IMG/VR virus record: IMGVR_UViG_2690316269_000013
Coordinates: 1-19,402 of that record
Source of the DNA: a virus
Taxonomy: Duplodnaviria; Heunggongvirae; Uroviricota; Caudoviricetes
Direction: 5' to 3' (one strand)
DNA: 19,402 bases
This document shows, piece by piece, positions 7,958 to 19,402 of this stretch. The position numbers and the translations under genes were made by a program. How positions within the stretch are numbered: position 1 is the first letter of the stretch; the number at the start of each line of letters is the position of its first letter. The notes below the pieces were generated by a model. The model saw only the letters and a program-made list of their open reading frames with translations. It was not told the origin of the DNA and searched no databases.

Positions 7958-8313
7958 TGGCCCGTATCGGGGGAACCTGTTATTTCAAAATTGACGGTCA
8001 ACAGCTATCGCTGACCGGCGGCATTGAGGTGCCCATGAACAGGACGGTCAATGATGACATCATCGGCCTGGACGGTTCAGTGGACCGCAAGGAAACTCAC
8101 CGTGCGCCTTATGTTAAAGGGACCTTCAAGGTGCCGAAGAATTTTCCGGTGAGCAAAATCACCTCGTCTGATGAGATGACCATCACTGCCGAGCTGGCGA
8201 ACGGTCAGGTCTATGTACTGTCGTCTGCCTGGCTGCACGGCGAAGCGAACCATAATGCCGAAGAAGGGACGGTTGATCTTGAGTTCCACGGTGAAGAAGG
8301 GGATTACCAGTAA
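7957..8313 (+). CDS. Tail tube protein (Mu gpM-like)
   Basis: 118 aa, TAATG-coupled to the sheath gene and followed by the chaperone and tape-measure genes. Confidence 0.7.
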   Translation: MARIGGTCYFKIDGQQLSLTGGIEVPMNRTVNDDIIGLDGSVDRKETHRAPYVKGTFKVPKNFPVSKITSSDEMTITAELANGQVYVLSSAWLHGEANHNAEEGTVDLEFHGEEGDYQ

Positions 8314-8582
8314 TGAAAGAGCTTGAGTTAAAGAAACCGATTACCGCTCATGGCGAGACACTCTCCGTACTGGAGTTTGATGAGCCCACCGGGAAAGATG
8401 TCCGCGAGCTGGGGTATCCCTACCAGATGAATCAGGATGAGTCCGTCAGACTTCTGGCGCATGTGGTATCGAAATACATTGTGCGGCTGGCGAAAGTGCC
8501 GCAAAACTCTGTCGACCAGATGTCTCCGGCAGACCTGAATGCTGCGGCGTGGCTTGTGGCTGGTTTTTTCCTCCAGGCCTGA
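8313..8582 (+). CDS. Tail assembly chaperone, short form (G-like)
   Basis: 89-aa acidic protein directly upstream of the tape-measure gene. It ends just after a TTTTTTC slippery heptamer. Confidence 0.6.
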   Translation: MKELELKKPITAHGETLSVLEFDEPTGKDVRELGYPYQMNQDESVRLLAHVVSKYIVRLAKVPQNSVDQMSPADLNAAAWLVAGFFLQA

Positions 8583-8731
8583 CGGCTGAATACCTCACTG
8601 ATCGCTTCTTTGACTGCGCCAGCTACTGGCGCATTAATCCCTTCGAATTGCTGAATATGCCGATCAGTGAAATTCCCTTGCTGGTCAGTCAGGCAAACAG
8701 GATAGAGCAGGAGAAACGCACACATGGCTGA
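8313..8731 (+). CDS. Tail assembly chaperone, long form (GT-like), made by programmed -1 frameshift at 8564-8570
   Basis: Zero-frame codons GGT TTT TTC (8562-8570) contain the heptamer T-TTT-TTC. The -1 frame (track ORF 8549-8731) stays open to a TGA at 8729-8731, overlapping the tape-measure start. This is the conserved chaperone arrangement upstream of tape-measure genes. Confidence 0.55.
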
Positions 8732-14618: not shown

Positions 14619-15663
14619 ATTTCAGCGCCCGACGCTGGCAGAAAATATCAGTATGCTCCGTAACGATTTATTTGCCAGGCTGGACGTCAGCGACACGCTC
14701 CGGCGCATGGATGAAGACGTGCGGGCAAAGGTGTATGCGGCGGCGCTGCATACGGTTTACGGGTACATCGATTATCTGGCAATGAATATGCTGCCTGACC
14801 TGTGCGATGAGTCCTGGCTGGCGCGACATGCTGCGATGAAACGGTGTCCGCGCAAGGGGGCCACGGCTGCCAGCGGGTATATGCGCTGGGAAGGTGTCAG
14901 CGATGGCCTGAAGGTGACCGCCGGGAGTGTTATTCAGCGCGATGACCTGGTTCAGTACACGGCAACTGCCGATGCAACCAGCACTGGTGGTGTCCTGCGT
15001 GTGCCGATCACTTGCTCAACTACAGGCGCGGTCGGTAACGCTGACGACGGTACGGCATTAATCCTGGTCACGCCGGTGAATGGTCTGCCGTCTTCCGGTG
15101 TGGCTGACACCCTGACAGGCGGATTTGATACTGAAGAGCTGGAAACGTGGCGCGCCCGCGTCATTGAGCGGTATTACTGGACGCCTCAGGGCGGGGCTGA
15201 CGGGGACTATGTCGTCTGGGCTAAAGAAGTGCCCGGCATTACCCGCGCATGGACATACCGACACTGGATGGGAACGGGGACTGTCGGTGTGATGATTGCC
15301 AGCAGTGACCTGATTAATCCCATTCCGGAAGAGTCAACGGAAACGGCGGCAAGACAACATATCGAGCCACTGGCCCCGGTGGCAGGCTCTGATTTGTATG
15401 TATTCAGGCCGGTGGCGCATAAAGTGGATTTTCATATCCGCGTGACGCCGGACACACCGGAAATACGGGCTGCCATCACCGCCGAGTTGCGTTCGTTCCT
15501 GCTGCGTGATGGTTATCCGCAGGGAGAACTGAAGGTGTCACGTATCAGTGAAGCGATTTCCGGTGCGAACGGGGAATACAGCCATCAGTTGCTTGCCCCG
15601 GCGGACAATATCTCCATTGCAAAAAATGAGCTGGCGGTTCTGGGGACGATTTCATGGACGTGA
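14605..15663 (+). CDS. Baseplate J-like protein (Mu gp47 / P2 gpJ-like)
   Basis: 352 aa, in conserved order before the gp48/YmfQ-like gene and the tail fibre. Confidence 0.8.
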
Positions 15664-16238
15664 CAAACGATGATTATATCCGTCTGTTGTCGGCACTGTT
15701 GCCGCCCGGTCCGGCGTGGTCAGTCAGCGATCCGGCGATTGCCGGTGCGGCACCGTCATTAACCCGCGTTCATCAGCGTGCGGATGCCCTGATGCGGGAG
15801 CTGGATCCGCGCACCACCACTGAACTGATAAACCGCTGGGAGCGTCTGTGCGGTCTGCCGGATGAATGTATTCCCGCAGGGACACAGACCCTTCGCCAGC
15901 GTCAGCAACGGCTGGATGCGAAGGTTAATCTGGCGGGCGGCATCAATGAGGATTTTTATCTTGCACAGCTTGCTGCCCTGGGCAGACCAGACGCCACTAT
16001 CACGCGATACGATAAAAGCACGTTCACCTGCTCATCGGCCTGTACTGACGCAGTGAATGCGCCGGAATGGCGGTATTACTGGCAGGTCAACATGCCAGCC
16101 GCCACCAACACCACCTGGATGACATGTGGCGATCCCTGTGATTCCGCACTGCGTATCTGGGGCGACACCGTTGTCGAGTGCGTGCTTAACAAACTCTGCC
16201 CTTCGCATACCTACGTAATTTTTAAATATCCGGAGTAA
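15654..16238 (+). CDS. Tail protein (Mu gp48 / YmfQ-like, DUF2313; P2 gpI analogue)
   Basis: 194 aa, overlaps the J-like gene and directly precedes the tail fibre gene, as in e14 and Mu. Confidence 0.6.
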
Positions 16239-16241
16239 TCC

Positions 16242-16997
16242 ATGCATCGTATAGACACGAAAACCGCGCAGAAGGATAAGTTCGGCGCGGGTAAAAACGG
16301 TTTTACCCGTGGTAACCCCCAGACTGGCACGCCTGCCACCGATCTGGATGATGACTACTTTGACATGTTGCAGGAGGAGCTTTGCAGCGTTGTAGAGGCA
16401 TCCGGTGCCAGTCTCGAGAAGGCGCGGCACGACCAGCTGCTTACCGCACTTCGTGCGCTGCTGTTAAGCCGCAAGAATCCGTTTGGCGATATCAAATCGG
16501 ATGGCACTGTGCAAACGGCTCTCGAAAACCTTGGTTTGGGAGAAGGCTCAGCGTTACCCGTTGGTGTACCTGTTCCGTGGCCTTCAGCCACACCGCCAAC
16601 AGGCTGGATTAAATGCAACGGTGCGCCTTTTTCTGCTGAAGAATACCCGGAGCTGGCAAAAGTTTATCCAGCGTTAAAATTGCCTGATTTGCGCGGTGAA
16701 TTTATCCGTGGCTGGGATGATGGGCGCGGGGTTGATAGTGGGCGCGTTGTTTTAACTGGTCAGAGCCAATCAGTACAGCAGCATACTCATGATCTAGCGA
16801 TGGCATACAGTTCAGATACCGCTTACAGGGACAGGCTGGGCGATACCCCTGACTCTGACATGATTCCGATTAAATATATGATTAATGCAACCACTTTTAA
16901 TGGCTCTGGTTGGGTTTACTTAAAGGCGAATGGTTCAACAGGTGCTGAAACTCGCCCGCGCAACCTCGCATTCAACTACATTGTAAGGGCAGTATAA
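16242..16997 (+). CDS. Tail fibre protein: constant N-terminal part fused to the currently expressed variable C-terminal part
   Basis: GGAG ribosome-binding site. 251 aa with C-terminal motifs typical of enterobacterial fibre tips (…[58 protein letters not shown]…). An invertase crossover site lies inside the gene at 16520-16546. Confidence 0.75.
16520..16546 (+). repeat. Left recombination (crossover) site for the DNA invertase, inside the tail fibre gene
   Basis: TCTCGAAAACC-TT-GGTTTGGGAGAAGG is an imperfect palindrome around a central TT and resembles hix/gix-type sites. The 15-nt core TTGGTTTGGGAGAAG recurs in inverted orientation at 18361-18375. Confidence 0.6.
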
Positions 16998-17602
16998 TGA
17001 CCGCAAAAGAAATTTCATTAGATGAAAACGGTTTCGCCACGGAAGACGGATATATCACCGTTTATAATTATGATGGCGTGACGCGTGAATATATCGGTTT
17101 AGCTGTTGAATATCTTCCCGTTGGCGTTGGTGTTCCAGGCAATTCGTGCGTGGATGCGCCAATCAGCAAAAAGGACGGCTTTGCTGTTTGCCGGACGGCT
17201 GATTTGACCGGTTGGGAATACGTTGCAGACCATCGCGGCGAAACCGTTTACAGCACGGAAACTGGAAAGCATGTGACAGTTTCACGGTTGGGAGAATACC
17301 CGGAAGGCACCACCACCACAGCACCATCTACGCCATATGACAAATGGGATGGTGAGAAATGGGCTACAGATAGCGATAAACAGCACTCGGCGAACGTGGC
17401 CGAAGCCGAGCAACAGAAAACAAATCTTCTGAACGCCGCAAATTCAAAAATCAGCCTGTGGCAAACGGAACTGCAGTTAGGCATTATCAGTGGCGATGAC
17501 AAAGCCAGCCTGATTGCCTGGATTGGCTACATTAAGGCGGTGCAGGCAACAGATACCAGCACCGCGCCGAATGTCATCTGGCCTGAACTGCCGGAGGCGT
17601 AG
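16997..17602 (+). CDS. Tail fibre assembly protein (chaperone for the + orientation fibre tip)
   Basis: 201 aa, TAATG-coupled to the fibre gene. Conserved Tfa-type C-terminus (…WIGYIKAVQATDTSTAPNVIWPELPEA). Confidence 0.75.
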   Translation: MTAKEISLDENGFATEDGYITVYNYDGVTREYIGLAVEYLPVGVGVPGNSCVDAPISKKDGFAVCRTADLTGWEYVADHRGETVYSTETGKHVTVSRLGEYPEGTTTTAPSTPYDKWDGEKWATDSDKQHSANVAEAEQQKTNLLNAANSKISLWQTELQLGIISGDDKASLIAWIGYIKAVQATDTSTAPNVIWPELPEA

Positions 17603-18014
17603 GCCATTCAATATCTGGCGCACCGGAAGTATCGACCAGTTCCAGTGCGTCCAGATAATCCAGCCACAAATTATATTGCGCCAGTTCCTCACCTTTCAGG
17701 CGACCAATCGCTGCTTTACCAGGCCATTGCTTACTGTATATGTATTCGTTGACCTGATTAATCAATTGCTGCTTTTCCAGTTCGGTTGCGGCAATTTGTT
17801 CCTCATGAGTTGGCGGTGGAATATCAATCCATGCAGGCATTCCGTCGATGACGCCTCTGTATTTTCCTTCTGGTGCTTCCTTCATAAATTCGGCGGCAAC
17901 AGTGTCGTCAATTTCGATTCCATCACCGGGCCATTCGCCGGATTCCTGATAAGCGATTTTAAGCTCCACAGGGAAAAACGCATTTTTATCGGCACTGAAA
18001 ATATATTTCTGCAT
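17574..18014 (-). CDS. Alternative tail fibre assembly protein (chaperone for the inverted-orientation fibre tip)
   Basis: 146 aa on the minus strand with a Tfa-type C-terminus (…LWLDYLDALELVDTSGAPDIEWPTPPAVQAR). Its 3' end overlaps the + strand chaperone gene by about 29 nt. Confidence 0.75.
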   Translation of the reverse strand: MQKYIFSADKNAFFPVELKIAYQESGEWPGDGIEIDDTVAAEFMKEAPEGKYRGVIDGMPAWIDIPPPTHEEQIAATELEKQQLINQVNEYIYSKQWPGKAAIGRLKGEELAQYNLWLDYLDALELVDTSGAPDIEWPTPPAVQAR

Positions 18015-18016
18015 TT

Positions 18017-18373
18017 CTACCGTCCTATCGAAATATAACTGAATCTGTATTGCTGTGAGATATCACTGGTTGCCACACGCCACGCTGAATTACTGATATG
18101 TTCAAAATTTACAGACAAAACCTGCGGGGCAGGATTCGACGGGTCTGACTGAACGGCATCAGACATAACACTGACTGAAACCATCGGCTGATTAGGGAAT
18201 GGTATAGGGAAGTGTCCACTGATAAAGCGGGTCGTGTTTCCTGAAAAAGTGCCAAACTGAACAATATATCCACCTGGTAGCCTGAACCATCCCGAACCAG
18301 AAGCGAATGCTCCCATATCCGGTATCTGATTATCTCCTGTGCCCACATCCCTTTTCGCCGCTTCTCCCAAACC
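18017..18373 (-). CDS. Alternative tail fibre variable C-terminal segment, without its own start; expressed only after inversion
   Basis: Minus-strand frame is open from the right crossover site down to a stop at 18017-18019, 2 nt from the alternative chaperone start. Read on the minus strand, the junction encodes GLGE, the same residues as at the + strand crossover (…ENLGLGEG…), so inversion would make an in-frame fusion. The apparent start is an artefact of the ORF caller. Confidence 0.6.
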   Translation of the reverse strand, partial: GLGEAAKRDVGTGDNQIPDMGAFASGSGWFRLPGGYIVQFGTFSGNTTRFISGHFPIPFPNQPMVSVSVMSDAVQSDPSNPAPQVLSVNFEHISNSAWRVATSDISQQYRFSYISIGR

Positions 18374-18387
18374 AACCTTTCAAATAT
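18361..18387 (-). repeat. Right recombination (crossover) site for the DNA invertase
   Basis: Minus-strand reading ATATTTGAAAGG-TT-GGTTTGGGAGAAG. The inner half and centre match the left site exactly; the outer half is degenerate. Confidence 0.55.
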
Positions 18388-18414
18388 TTTTCTGAATCAG
18401 GTGATATTTCGCCT

Positions 18415-18441
18415 CTTCTCCTGTTTTTACAACAGGAGAAG
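18415..18441 (+). promoter_or_regulatory. Perfect 11-bp inverted repeat that would sequester the invertase ribosome-binding site
   Basis: CTTCTCCTGTT (18415-18425), loop TTTAC, AACAGGAGAAG (18431-18441). The right arm contains the AGGAGA Shine-Dalgarno 6 nt upstream of the invertase ATG (18447). Confidence 0.45.
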
Positions 18442-18446
18442 CACTC

Positions 18447-19010
18447 ATGATTTACGGGTATGTTCGTGTATCAACAAATCATCAGGATACAGAGTTGCAA
18501 CGTCTTGCACTTGAGTCAGCTGGCTGTGAGCGAATTTATGAAGAATATGCCAGTGGCAGAACAGCTAATCGCCCTGTGTTAAAGGAATTAATTACGGTGA
18601 TGAAAAGTGGAGATGAGTTGATTGTCTGGAAGTTAGATCGGATAGGGAGAAATGTGCTGCATGCGCTATTGATGTTTCAAAATCTGCACGAAAAAGGTGT
18701 TAATTTTCGGAGTATTACAGATGGCGTAGACCTGAAAACAGCAAGTGGTCGCTATAATTTTCGTAATATTCTTTCTGCTGCGCAGTATGAATCTGATTTG
18801 AATAGCGAGCGAACTTTAGCTGGTTTGGCTATTGCCAGATCCAAAGGCCGGATTGGTGGGCGTAGACCGAAGTTTAGCGACGAGCAGTGGCAACAGATGG
18901 GAGCGCTCATAGCGGCAGGGAAATCACGGCGTTATGTTGCACGTATCTATAACGTTGGGCTATCAACCCTATATAAACGATTTCCTGTTACTGGCATTCA
19001 AACGAAATAA
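18447..19010 (+). CDS. pin: Serine recombinase, DNA invertase (Pin/Gin/Hin/Cin family)
   Basis: 187 aa. N-terminus MIYGYVRVSTNHQDTELQ carries the catalytic-serine motif of resolvase/invertase enzymes. Core VWKLDRIGRN and C-terminal helix-turn-helix (…YNVGLSTLYKRF…) are as in Pin/Hin/Gin. Low G+C compared with the structural genes. Confidence 0.9.
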   Translation: MIYGYVRVSTNHQDTELQRLALESAGCERIYEEYASGRTANRPVLKELITVMKSGDELIVWKLDRIGRNVLHALLMFQNLHEKGVNFRSITDGVDLKTASGRYNFRNILSAAQYESDLNSERTLAGLAIARSKGRIGGRRPKFSDEQWQQMGALIAAGKSRRYVARIYNVGLSTLYKRFPVTGIQTK

Positions 19011-19153: not shown

Positions 19154-19402
19154 TTAGTGAACAAACCACTCGTCAGCAGATTCCCAGGTATCTTTCAGAG
19201 TCTCCTGAACAAAAGTTTTTGCAGAATCCTTATCTGCGGTGCGTGTAACAGAAAGGCCATCATTGCTGGTGGCTTTTACGATCACCTCTACATCGTCATA
19301 ACGTTTACTGATGCGTCGGGTTAATTCTTCCTTTAACGCATCCACAGCACCGGTTGGCATTTTAGTCATTTTTTCTTTGGCTATGCAGATTTCAATACGC
19401 AT
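19154..19402 (-). CDS. dinI: DinI-like protein (DNA damage-inducible protein I family)
   Basis: 82 aa on the minus strand: [82 protein letters not shown]. Size, MRIE start and acidic …[10 protein letters not shown]-terminal tail match my memory of DinI. The start codon is the last three bases of the window, so the promoter is not visible. Confidence 0.75.

Follow-up and report, generated by a model that had tools for sequence, protein, structure and literature searches.

A probable e14-type invertible tail-fibre segment next to a PinL-like serine invertase in a temperate myovirus prophage

Is the pair of inverted repeats that brackets two alternative tail-fibre ends in this phage DNA part of a working inversion switch, and what kind of enzyme would operate it? 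The locus was analyzed within the whole stretch of DNA at hand, 19,402 nucleotides long and hereafter called the window. Serine invertases that flip tail-fibre segments have been textbook knowledge since Mu, P1, and e14, and a switch of this well-described kind is nothing new as such. An earlier note on this DNA had placed the locus with the Mu G, P1 C, and e14 P segments. Every structural element of such a switch was found present and intact, with a left crossover site identical to that of e14, and the locus is very probably an invertible P segment of the e14 type, situated in the late, tail-encoding region of a temperate myovirus prophage. Coordinates are collected in Table 1.

Table 1. Features of the invertible segment and its surroundings (positions in the window).
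Feature	Position	Strand	Evidence or description
Tail-fibre gene	16242-16997	+	Collar domain; 251 aa in the present orientation
Constant N-terminal fibre part, 97 codons	16242-16532	+	Outside the invertible segment
Left 26-bp crossover site	16519-16544		CTCTCGAAAACC-TT-GGTTTGGGAGAA; central dinucleotide 16531-16532; within the fibre ORF; encodes ENLGLGE
Variable fibre C-terminus A, now fused to the constant part	16533-16997	+	Pfam Collar, 5e-14
Assembly chaperone A, 201 aa	16997-17602	+	Pfam Caudo_TAP, 2e-34; phrog_105, 8e-85
Assembly chaperone B, 146 aa	17574-18014	-	Pfam Caudo_TAP, 2e-32
Silent variable fibre C-terminus B, 118 codons	18017-18373	-	Pfam Gp53-like_C, 2e-9
Right 26-bp crossover site	18362-18387		Read on the - strand (18387-18362): ATATTTGAAAGG-TT-GGTTTGGGAGAA; central AA 18374-18375
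Hairpin, 11-bp stem	18414-18442	+	3' arm holds the invertase Shine-Dalgarno; the 85-nt leader RNA folds with z = -4.5
Small serine DNA invertase, 187 aa	18447-19010	+	Outside the segment; Pfam Resolvase and HTH_7
Position homologous to the Cin/Gin/Pin recombinational enhancer	18465-18536		nt 19-90 of the invertase gene

The core of the proposed switch is a 15-mer, TTGGTTTGGGAGAAG, with two exact copies in the window, one at 16531-16545 on the + strand and the other inverted at 18361-18375. Both had been placed correctly by the earlier note, and no other exact copy was found in the window. In a repeat search, the match could be extended to 20 nt at 90% identity (repeat I2). A second inverted repeat of 20 nt and 90% identity (I1), unrelated to the switch, lies nearby, and the chance expectation for an exact 15-nt inverted repeat is about 0.18 per 19.4 kb (0.004 per 2.9-kb region). 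Repeat length alone is therefore not decisive. What decides is the placement of the two copies, their common reading frame, and their identity to the published e14 repeat. The 15-mer corresponds exactly to nt 1-15 of the 16-nt repeat at which e14 inversion was demonstrated (PMC12529663). Inversion at this e14 sequence, TTGGTTTGGGAGAAGG, was established by sequencing and qPCR in that study and by sequencing and PCR in another (PMC4272514).

The 26-bp left crossover site is identical at 26 of 26 positions to the left site of e14 in E. coli K-12 and to sites in three related loci (L002, L003, and L005), and homology with relatives breaks off at this site. The central dinucleotides of the left and right sites match in opposite orientation, and core and inner half-site are identical between the two. 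The family consensus, consisting of two inverted 12-bp half-sites that end in AAACC on either side of a 2-bp core, is followed by the left site as a whole and by the right site in its inner half, whereas the right outer half (18376-18387) is non-canonical, matching the other half-sites at 5 of 12 positions and ending in AAAGG, not AAACC, beside the core. Degenerate, as the earlier note had called this half-site, is thus an accurate description, but the odd form is conserved and not a sign of decay: AAAGG is kept in 16 of the 19 loci that were examined from the PinL-like invertase clade described below (window counted), and the proximal site form AAAGG-TT-GGTTT co-occurs with that enzyme clade in many genera. 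Nor can the outer half bias the direction of inversion, as had also been suggested, because core and inner half-sites are identical and both sites would be regenerated unchanged. The invertase gene begins 71 nt from the right core, and in phi80 and loci L001-L005 the same site likewise lies 71 nt ahead of the ATG of the invertase gene. Scans for further crossover sites (allowing 3 mismatches at most to the 15-mer and 2 at most to AAACCNNGGTTT) returned the two known sites plus background, on which ground a shufflon- or Min-like multi-inversion system was rejected.

Two alternative fibre C-termini in opposite orientations, each with its own chaperone, had been proposed to lie between the sites, and domain searches agreed, assigning Collar and Caudo_TAP to the + strand pair and Gp53-like_C and Caudo_TAP to the - strand pair. 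The constant region up to 16546 has 96% nucleotide identity to e14 jayE-ymfQ-stfP, and the constant fibre part shows a weak match to Mu fibre protein S in its N-terminal region (PDB 8JU3). C-terminus A matches the T4 gp37 tip (PDB 2XGF, 2e-16) and is 84% identical to e14 stfE, which has the inverted orientation. Chaperone B is convergent with chaperone A, with a 29-nt overlap, and differs at 4 of 146 residues from the chaperone of Escherichia phage SKA5, where the copy is in the expressed orientation. C-terminus B has no start of its own upstream, and an in-frame TGA (18380-18382) stands two codons before GLGE. In the fibre frame, GGT TTG GGA GAA (GLGE) is read at both sites, as the earlier note had stated, and the - strand frame continues as ...GLGEAAKRD. 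Simulated inversion produced the in-frame fusion that had been predicted, an open 215-aa fibre with one residue different from the annotated SKA5 side tail fibre; the native 251-aa ORF is likewise open. In none of the five genes (fibre, two chaperones, silent end, and invertase) was a frameshift or stop seen. Collar and Gp53-like_C, the domain families of the two C-termini, are unrelated, which makes a difference in host range plausible. Around the locus, the genes make up what looks like a complete head and contractile-tail module, with head, sheath, tube, tape-measure, and baseplate functions.

The single assembled window sequence shows one orientation; both orientations are seen in relatives. 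We searched 5,426 complete E. coli genomes with a 2.9-kb query in native and simulated inverted form, and the exact cassette pair of the window was absent from them as a pair in either orientation. Coverage of the query was at best 64% (native) and 73% (inverted), with no record reaching 80%, and this exact pairing is a new mosaic combination. Because the two cassettes were not found together, orientation was examined junction by junction. All four junction types were present, in 46, 19, 513, and 67 of the 5,426 genomes, and relatives hold the same cassettes in both orientations with breaks exactly at the repeat. In SKA5, GZ2408P, and strain 2824, the silent cassette of the window is flipped, the invertase-side flanks are 99.7% identical, and the invertase is identical in all three. 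The constant-side flank of SKA5 is 99.4% identical to the window, and the SKA5 cassette pair aligns contiguously in both orientations at 98.2% identity.

The earlier note had spoken of a Pin/Gin-type cassette with a serine invertase gene beside it. The gene outside the segment does encode a serine invertase: the protein shows a full-length match to Gin (structure 3UJ3, residues 1-181, E = 1e-56), and the catalytic residues corresponding to Hin R8, S10, D65, R66, and R69 are conserved. Membership in the Pin/Gin group proper did not hold up. PinE and Gin are 78% identical to each other, whereas the window invertase lacks such close kinship to classical members (55% identity to PinE and 50% to Gin) and groups with PinL of phi80 (80%) and with 12 loci from other Enterobacterales (65-82%). 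The protein is 100% identical to the 'DNA invertase' of SKA5 and to a 'recombinase family protein' encoded in three E. coli genomes. A literature search turned up no paper on PinL activity.

We compared the invertase with classical enzymes at the features through which Fis and the recombinational enhancer act. The enhancer of the classical enzymes has two Fis sites about 48 bp apart, and in the P1 record it spans nt 19-90 of cin. Against GNNYRNNWNNYRNNC, the cores centred at nt 30 and 78 deviate by 1 and 0 positions in cin, gin, and pinE versus 2 and 3 in the window gene, and a comparison of 14 clade members revealed no conserved pair of G/C-flanked Fis sites in the 5' part of the gene. Synonymous constraint over nt 19-90 is raised as much as in classical genes (0.54 versus 0.40 elsewhere), which constraint on translation initiation could also explain. 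Residues that touch Fis or the enhancer are basic at Hin positions 47, 48, and 51 and include Gln151, Arg154, and Leu155 (PMC3798978). The window enzyme keeps K47, Q151, and L155 and has Glu at 48, Thr at 51, and Ala at 154. The helix-E gate of Hin is formed by Phe105, Met109, and Leu112, accompanied by Phe106 and the Phe88 pocket, and the F105N change in Hin was reported to permit Fis-independent inversion (PMC4513852). The corresponding residues here are Asn at 105, Ile at 109, and Ala at 112, with Arg at 107 and Tyr at 115; Phe106 and Phe88 are kept, and pocket positions 67, 77, and 78 are altered. The invertase thus differs from Hin, Gin, Cin, and Pin at most residues linked to Fis/enhancer control. 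With these positions changed and the Fis cores degraded, activity and control cannot be read from the classical enzymes, and Fis dependence is only an assumption.

The leader of the invertase gene carries a hairpin that is kept in six other loci, with one compensatory pair change, and whose phi80 counterpart is annotated only as 'IR3'. We regard it as a putative translational throttle of the invertase; scans for sigma-70 promoters and terminators returned nothing convincing for this gene. An invariant helix-E motif, SGRYNFRNILSAAQYESDLNSERT, is shared by the window enzyme with PinL of phi80 and with relatives spread over at least eight enterobacterial genera. We tentatively suggest, while giving the idea a rather low chance, that PinL-like invertases could be a distinct subfamily, gated differently from Hin, Gin, Cin, and Pin. 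Its members may dispense with the Fis/enhancer invertasome and might instead be restrained by the asymmetric proximal site and, in the closer half of the subfamily, by a hairpin that buries the ribosome-binding site.

By analogy with Hin and Gin, the invertase (18447-19010) would bind the left site and its inverted partner (18362-18387), introduce 2-bp staggered cuts at the central TT/AA, rotate one pair of half-sites by 180 degrees, and religate the strands. The segment flipped would be 16531-18375 (1,845 bp). The first 97 codons of the fibre would remain fixed, and the receptor-binding C-terminus and its matching chaperone would come from whichever of the convergent cassettes faces the fixed part. 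The present orientation would express the 251-aa collar-domain fibre with the 201-aa chaperone, and the inverted one the 215-aa gp53-like fibre with the 146-aa chaperone. If the switch is active in the source strain, a lysogen population would probably release two kinds of virion that differ in receptor specificity.

Four other explanations were weighed. A chance inverted repeat between cassettes that are merely neighbouring diverged genes would be compatible with the calculated expectation per window and with the unrelated repeat nearby, and we give it next to no weight: identity to the e14 repeat, the same frame at both copies, the invertase gene next door, and homology that in many genomes breaks exactly at the repeat already refute it. 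The segment might instead serve the bacterium, inversion yielding a fibre fragment on the cell surface that keeps other phages from adsorbing. Such a role was reported for StfE2 of the homologous e14 segment, which has the same repeat (PMC12529663). The e14 protein starts at a codon outside the segment on the invertase side, and here the in-frame stop at 18380-18382 blocks a chimera of that kind, for which reason an StfE2-like reading was rejected for the window locus; the window also has a complete complement of genes for head, sheath, tube, tape measure, and baseplate, which a virion-building phage would be expected to carry. We consider a defensive role very improbable.

The two remaining alternatives accept the anatomy of the switch. 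A frozen relic, in which the parts are intact and inversion was lost (for example, through lost enhancer or Fis contacts or hairpin-blocked invertase translation), would account for the mismatched Fis cores, the non-basic residues at Hin positions 48, 51, and 154, and the Shine-Dalgarno buried in an 11-bp stem. Yet both orientations occur among prophages with an identical invertase, a right site that is identical or nearly so, and flanks of 99.7% identity, the hairpin and site form are conserved features rather than decay, and the five genes are free of frameshifts and stops, so that we think this explanation improbable, if less so than the defensive role. Somewhat higher, though still unlikely, we rate a real switch flipped mainly or only in trans by resident invertases of the PinE, PinQ, or PinR type, with little contribution from the adjacent PinL-like enzyme. 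The repeat is the same as in e14, which PinQ inverts efficiently despite only 38% identity to PinE (PMC12529663), and the EC958 prophage Phi4 inverts though its invertase is truncated (PMC4134206). The poor outer half of the right site and the absence of several classical regulatory residues from the enzyme point the same way. Since e14-type repeats can be inverted in trans, flipped relatives are no proof of action by the adjacent enzyme. Against trans flipping stand an intact invertase ORF with all catalytic residues, 100% conservation of the protein among prophages of both orientations, and the joint occurrence of AAAGG-TT-GGTTT and this enzyme clade in many genera, which suggests that site and enzyme are cognate.

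The e14-type invertible segment remains the preferred reading, and its consequences are mostly practical. An identical invertase has already been deposited and annotated in SKA5 and three E. coli genomes. For annotation, the ORF at 18017-18373 should be treated as a silent fibre end and not as a separate gene, and both orientations may turn up in assemblies of lysogens of this kind. The locus also shows that the fragmentary e14 tail region comes from a myovirus prophage of this still-complete type.

Among known systems, the e14 P segment of E. coli K-12 (ymfQ-stfP-tfaP / tfaE-stfE-pinE) has the same gene order as the window. Its left 26-bp site is identical and its repeat core the same, its constant fibre and upstream baseplate genes are 96% identical, its chaperone genes overlap by the same 29 nt, and its segment measures 1,797 bp versus 1,845 bp here. 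The cassette expressed in the window is of the StfE/TfaE type (84% and 69% identity), whereas the silent gp53-like cassette is unrelated to StfP/TfaP and, unlike the silent copy in e14, has no external start codon. The outer half of the right site is TTTTCATAAACG in e14 and ATATTTGAAAGG here, and PinE is only 55% identical to the window invertase. While e14 is a defective remnant, the window element is an apparently complete prophage.

The Mu G (Gin) and P1 C (Cin) segments share with the window a fibre gene split into constant and variable parts, two convergent sets of fibre end and chaperone, 26-bp sites with AAACC-NN-GGTTT centres, and a small serine invertase gene just outside the segment; Mu gp44-48 type baseplate genes lie upstream in the window. 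The segment is smaller here (1.8 kb, compared with 3 kb for Mu G and 4.2 kb for P1 C), and the constant part comprises just 97 aa. Repeats here measure 15 nt, whereas the Mu sites are fully identical; Gin is only 50% identical to the window invertase, and the enhancer Fis cores of cin, gin, and pinE are not clearly conserved in the window.

The closest named invertase is phi80 PinL, with 80% identity. The phi80 locus has an identical right site, the same 71 nt to the ATG, and an identical upstream hairpin. It is a remnant, because one site and a fibre pseudogene fragment remain and pinL is C-terminally truncated (172 aa), whereas the window holds a complete switch. Further close counterparts are Escherichia phage SKA5 (OR670062) and dusA-linked E. 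coli prophages, which have an identical invertase, flanks 99.4-99.7% identical, the same gp53-like cassette, and DinI, integrase, and dusA downstream. SKA5 differs in carrying the gp53-like cassette in the expressed orientation and, as its second cassette, another allele that is 86% identical over the first 214 nt and then unrelated.

The 15-nt core reported in the earlier note, TTGGTTTGGGAGAAG, was found as exact copies at 16531-16545 on the plus strand and 18361-18375 on the minus strand, and the whole window holds no third copy. The inverted pair that a repeat finder placed at the crossover sites (I2) corresponds to the same two sequences, scored as a 20-nt, 90% repeat. The length of this repeat is unremarkable by itself because chance alone would yield ~0.18 exact 15-nt inverted repeats per 19.4 kb, and because an unrelated 20-nt, 90% repeat (I1) lies close by. 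Its significance comes from its surroundings, and a chance match is excluded. Between the copies lie, as the earlier note described, two opposed fiber C-termini, each with an assembly chaperone: a Collar/Caudo_TAP pair on the plus strand and a Gp53-like_C/Caudo_TAP pair on the minus strand. G-L-G-E is read in the fiber frame at both copies. The silent Gp53-like_C end lacks its own start and has an in-frame TGA two codons upstream of its GLGE. When 16531-18375 was inverted in silico, an open 215-aa fiber resulted, in agreement with the proposed in-frame swap. The convergent chaperone genes overlap by 29 nt (17574-17602), and the overlap is equal in e14 (tfaP/tfaE) and Escherichia phage SKA5 (OR670062).

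Coordinates of genes, crossover sites, and flanking features of the invertible segment
Feature	Position	Strand	Remarks
Tail-fiber ORF, 251 aa	16242-16997	+	Phage tail collar domain in C-terminal half
Left 26-bp crossover site	16519-16544	+	CTCTCGAAAACC-TT-GGTTTGGGAGAA; within the tail-fiber ORF
Caudo_TAP chaperone, 201 aa	16997-17602	+	
Caudo_TAP chaperone, 146 aa	17574-18014	-	Convergent
Gp53-like_C fiber end, 118 codons	18017-18373	-	
Right 26-bp crossover site	18387-18362	Read on -	ATATTTGAAAGG-TT-GGTTTGGGAGAA
Hairpin	18414-18442		CTTCTCCTGTT-TTTAC-AACAGGAGAAG
Serine invertase, 187 aa	18447-19010	+	Resolvase and HTH_7; starts 71 nt past the right core
DinI-like gene	19154-19402	-	82-aa ORF beginning at the last base of the window

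At its center the left site has TT (16531-16532) and the right site AA (18374-18375), the dinucleotide arrangement that inversion requires. As had been noted, the right site has a degenerate outer half, which matches the other half-sites at 5/12 positions by manual count. The form AAAGG-TT-GGTTT of this invertase-proximal site (window 18376-18387) recurred in 16 of 19 loci with a PinL-type invertase from many genera (the window, phage phi80, five E. coli or SKA5 loci, and 12 loci from other genera), and the partner site in the fiber gene had the canonical ACC-TT-GGTTT in all six loci where it could be located. GG thus replaces CC beside the core in the proximal site while the partner stays canonical, a conserved asymmetry. 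In e14, the right site likewise has a non-canonical outer half, as does a site in an EC958 prophage. Judged from these alignments, the right outer half is not decay. The directional bias suggested by the earlier note did not hold: the two sites share the same core and inner half, and both are therefore restored unchanged by inversion. The right site can alter the rate of inversion, not its direction.

Relatives carry the inverted arrangement. The invertase is 100% identical in SKA5 and E. coli GZ2408P and 2824, whose invertase-side flanks are 99.7% identical to the window; the constant-side flank of SKA5 is 99.4% identical. In all three, the Gp53-like cassette (window 17528-18375) is flipped and joins the constant part exactly at the repeat, and the predicted 215-aa fusion differs from the annotated SKA5 fiber at one residue of 215. 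Queries of 400 nt spanning native and predicted inverted junctions were compared with 5,426 complete E. coli genomes at a coverage of at least 80%. Native left and right junctions were present in 513 and 46 genomes, and predicted inverted left and right junctions in 19 and 67, respectively. For the SKA5 cassette pair, a single unbroken alignment spans the two junctions in each orientation (98.2% each, in different strains); the exact pair of the window was absent together, in either orientation, among the complete E. coli genomes searched. The anatomy of the segment, its reading frame, and its natural inversions were observed in this analysis. Cassettes have clearly been reshuffled. Homology with relatives breaks at the crossover sites and at or near the 29-nt chaperone overlap (17528 and 17590), and half-segments therefore seem to be exchanged as modules. 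Parts of the segment (16528-18380) share 96% identity with Klebsiella phages (Kp4845-2 and relatives) and Salmonella phage MET_P1_103_31, which suggests that fiber cassettes pass from phages of one genus to those of another.

Genes for terminase, portal, protease, capsid, sheath, tube, tape measure, and Mu gp44-48-type baseplate proteins occupy the upstream part of the window. In relatives, the DinI-like gene is followed by a tyrosine integrase and then dusA. Together, these genes place the segment in the late region of a temperate myovirus that appears complete, with the window ending near the prophage attachment end. In the gap between tail tube and tape measure, where a tail assembly chaperone made by programmed frameshifting is usually encoded, no plus-strand ORF of at least 90 aa is listed (8313-8724).

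The best-supported mechanism is, by analogy, the standard account for such systems, which comes from inversion studies of Hin and Gin (PMC3798978, PMC4513852). Invertase dimers would bind both crossover sites, the bound sites would synapse, cuts staggered by 2 bp would open the central dinucleotide, half-sites would be swapped through subunit rotation, and the strands would be religated. We infer this chemistry from Hin and Gin, and inversion would be expected to alter host range. Inversion in trans by other resident Pin enzymes is possible and compatible with this account. That the locus is a frozen relic is unlikely, since identical enzymes and sites occur in prophages of both orientations. 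The StfE2-type defense role that e14 is reported to have cannot carry over unchanged to this locus: no external start codon can give rise to the chimera here, and the prophage still has the genes for a complete virion.

The hairpin ahead of the invertase gene, a perfect 11-bp stem with a 5-nt loop, buries the Shine-Dalgarno sequence of that gene. An identical hairpin in phi80 carries only the annotation 'IR3', and five other genera retain the structure with a single compensatory change from C-G to T-A; no such hairpin was seen upstream of pinE, gin, or cin. It probably acts as a translational throttle, keeping inversion rare.

The invertase aligned with the Gin structure 3UJ3 over residues 1-181 (E = 1e-56) and keeps the catalytic residues at Hin positions R8, S10, D65, R66, and R69. 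The earlier description as a Pin/Gin-type cassette stands for the kind of switch but not for the enzyme, which is 55% identical to PinE, 50% to Gin, and 80% to phi80 PinL, whereas PinE and Gin share 78%; by sequence, it lies outside Pin and Gin proper. Scanning a single genome for each species added 12 usable loci with 65-82% identity (Kluyvera, Trabulsiella, Pseudocitrobacter, Morganella, Erwinia, Citrobacter, Shimwellia, and Apirhabdus). The helix-E stretch SGRYNFRNILSAAQYESDLNSERT (residues 100-123) was invariant in 14/14 PinL-like members of 65-100% overall identity. Hin, Gin, Cin, and Pin have MGRFFFHVMGALAEMERELIVERT instead, and the departures lie where hyperactive, Fis-independent mutations map. 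Relative to Hin (positions 47, 48, 51, and 54 of the sequence used match PMC3798978), the window enzyme carries Asn, Ile, and Ala at helix-E gate positions 105, 109, and 112, Arg and Tyr at helix-E positions 107 and 115, Glu and Thr at enhancer contacts 48 and 51, and Ala at Fis contact 154. Hin F105N is reported to allow inversion without Fis (PMC4513852). The Cin enhancer spans nt 19-90 of cin according to the P1 record annotation. Fis cores have 1 and 0 mismatches to the classical pattern in cin, gin, and pinE versus 2 and 3 in the window, and no conserved Fis-core pair was seen at the enhancer position across the PinL-like clade. Synonymous-site constraint at nt 19-90 versus elsewhere was nevertheless similar in the PinL-like clade (0.54 versus 0.40) and the classical trio (0.56 versus 0.40). 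The locus would work like Gin/Pin, but given these opposing signs, its membership in the Fis/enhancer-dependent group is not established.

The finding itself is correct; systems of this kind have long been known, and public databases already contain the components. What is mildly novel is confined to the PinL-like invertase clade, in which the asymmetry of the proximal site and the hairpin over the ribosome-binding site are conserved. A close known counterpart is e14. Window 14876-16546 is 96% nucleotide-identical to jayE-ymfQ-stfP of K-12, with identity stopping exactly at the crossover site. The alignment with known sites that the earlier note had proposed showed the left site to be 26/26 identical to that of e14, and the 15-mer corresponds to nt 1-15 of the 16-nt e14 repeat TTGGTTTGGGAGAAGG. 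The 1797-bp e14 P segment inverts at TTGGTTTGGGAGAAGG under PinE and PinQ (PMC12529663), and both forms coexist in clonal MG1655 cultures (PMC4272514). The cassette expressed in the window is of the StfE/TfaE type, which the K-12 reference has in the opposite orientation, and the e14 tail-gene remnant appears to derive from such a complete myovirus prophage.
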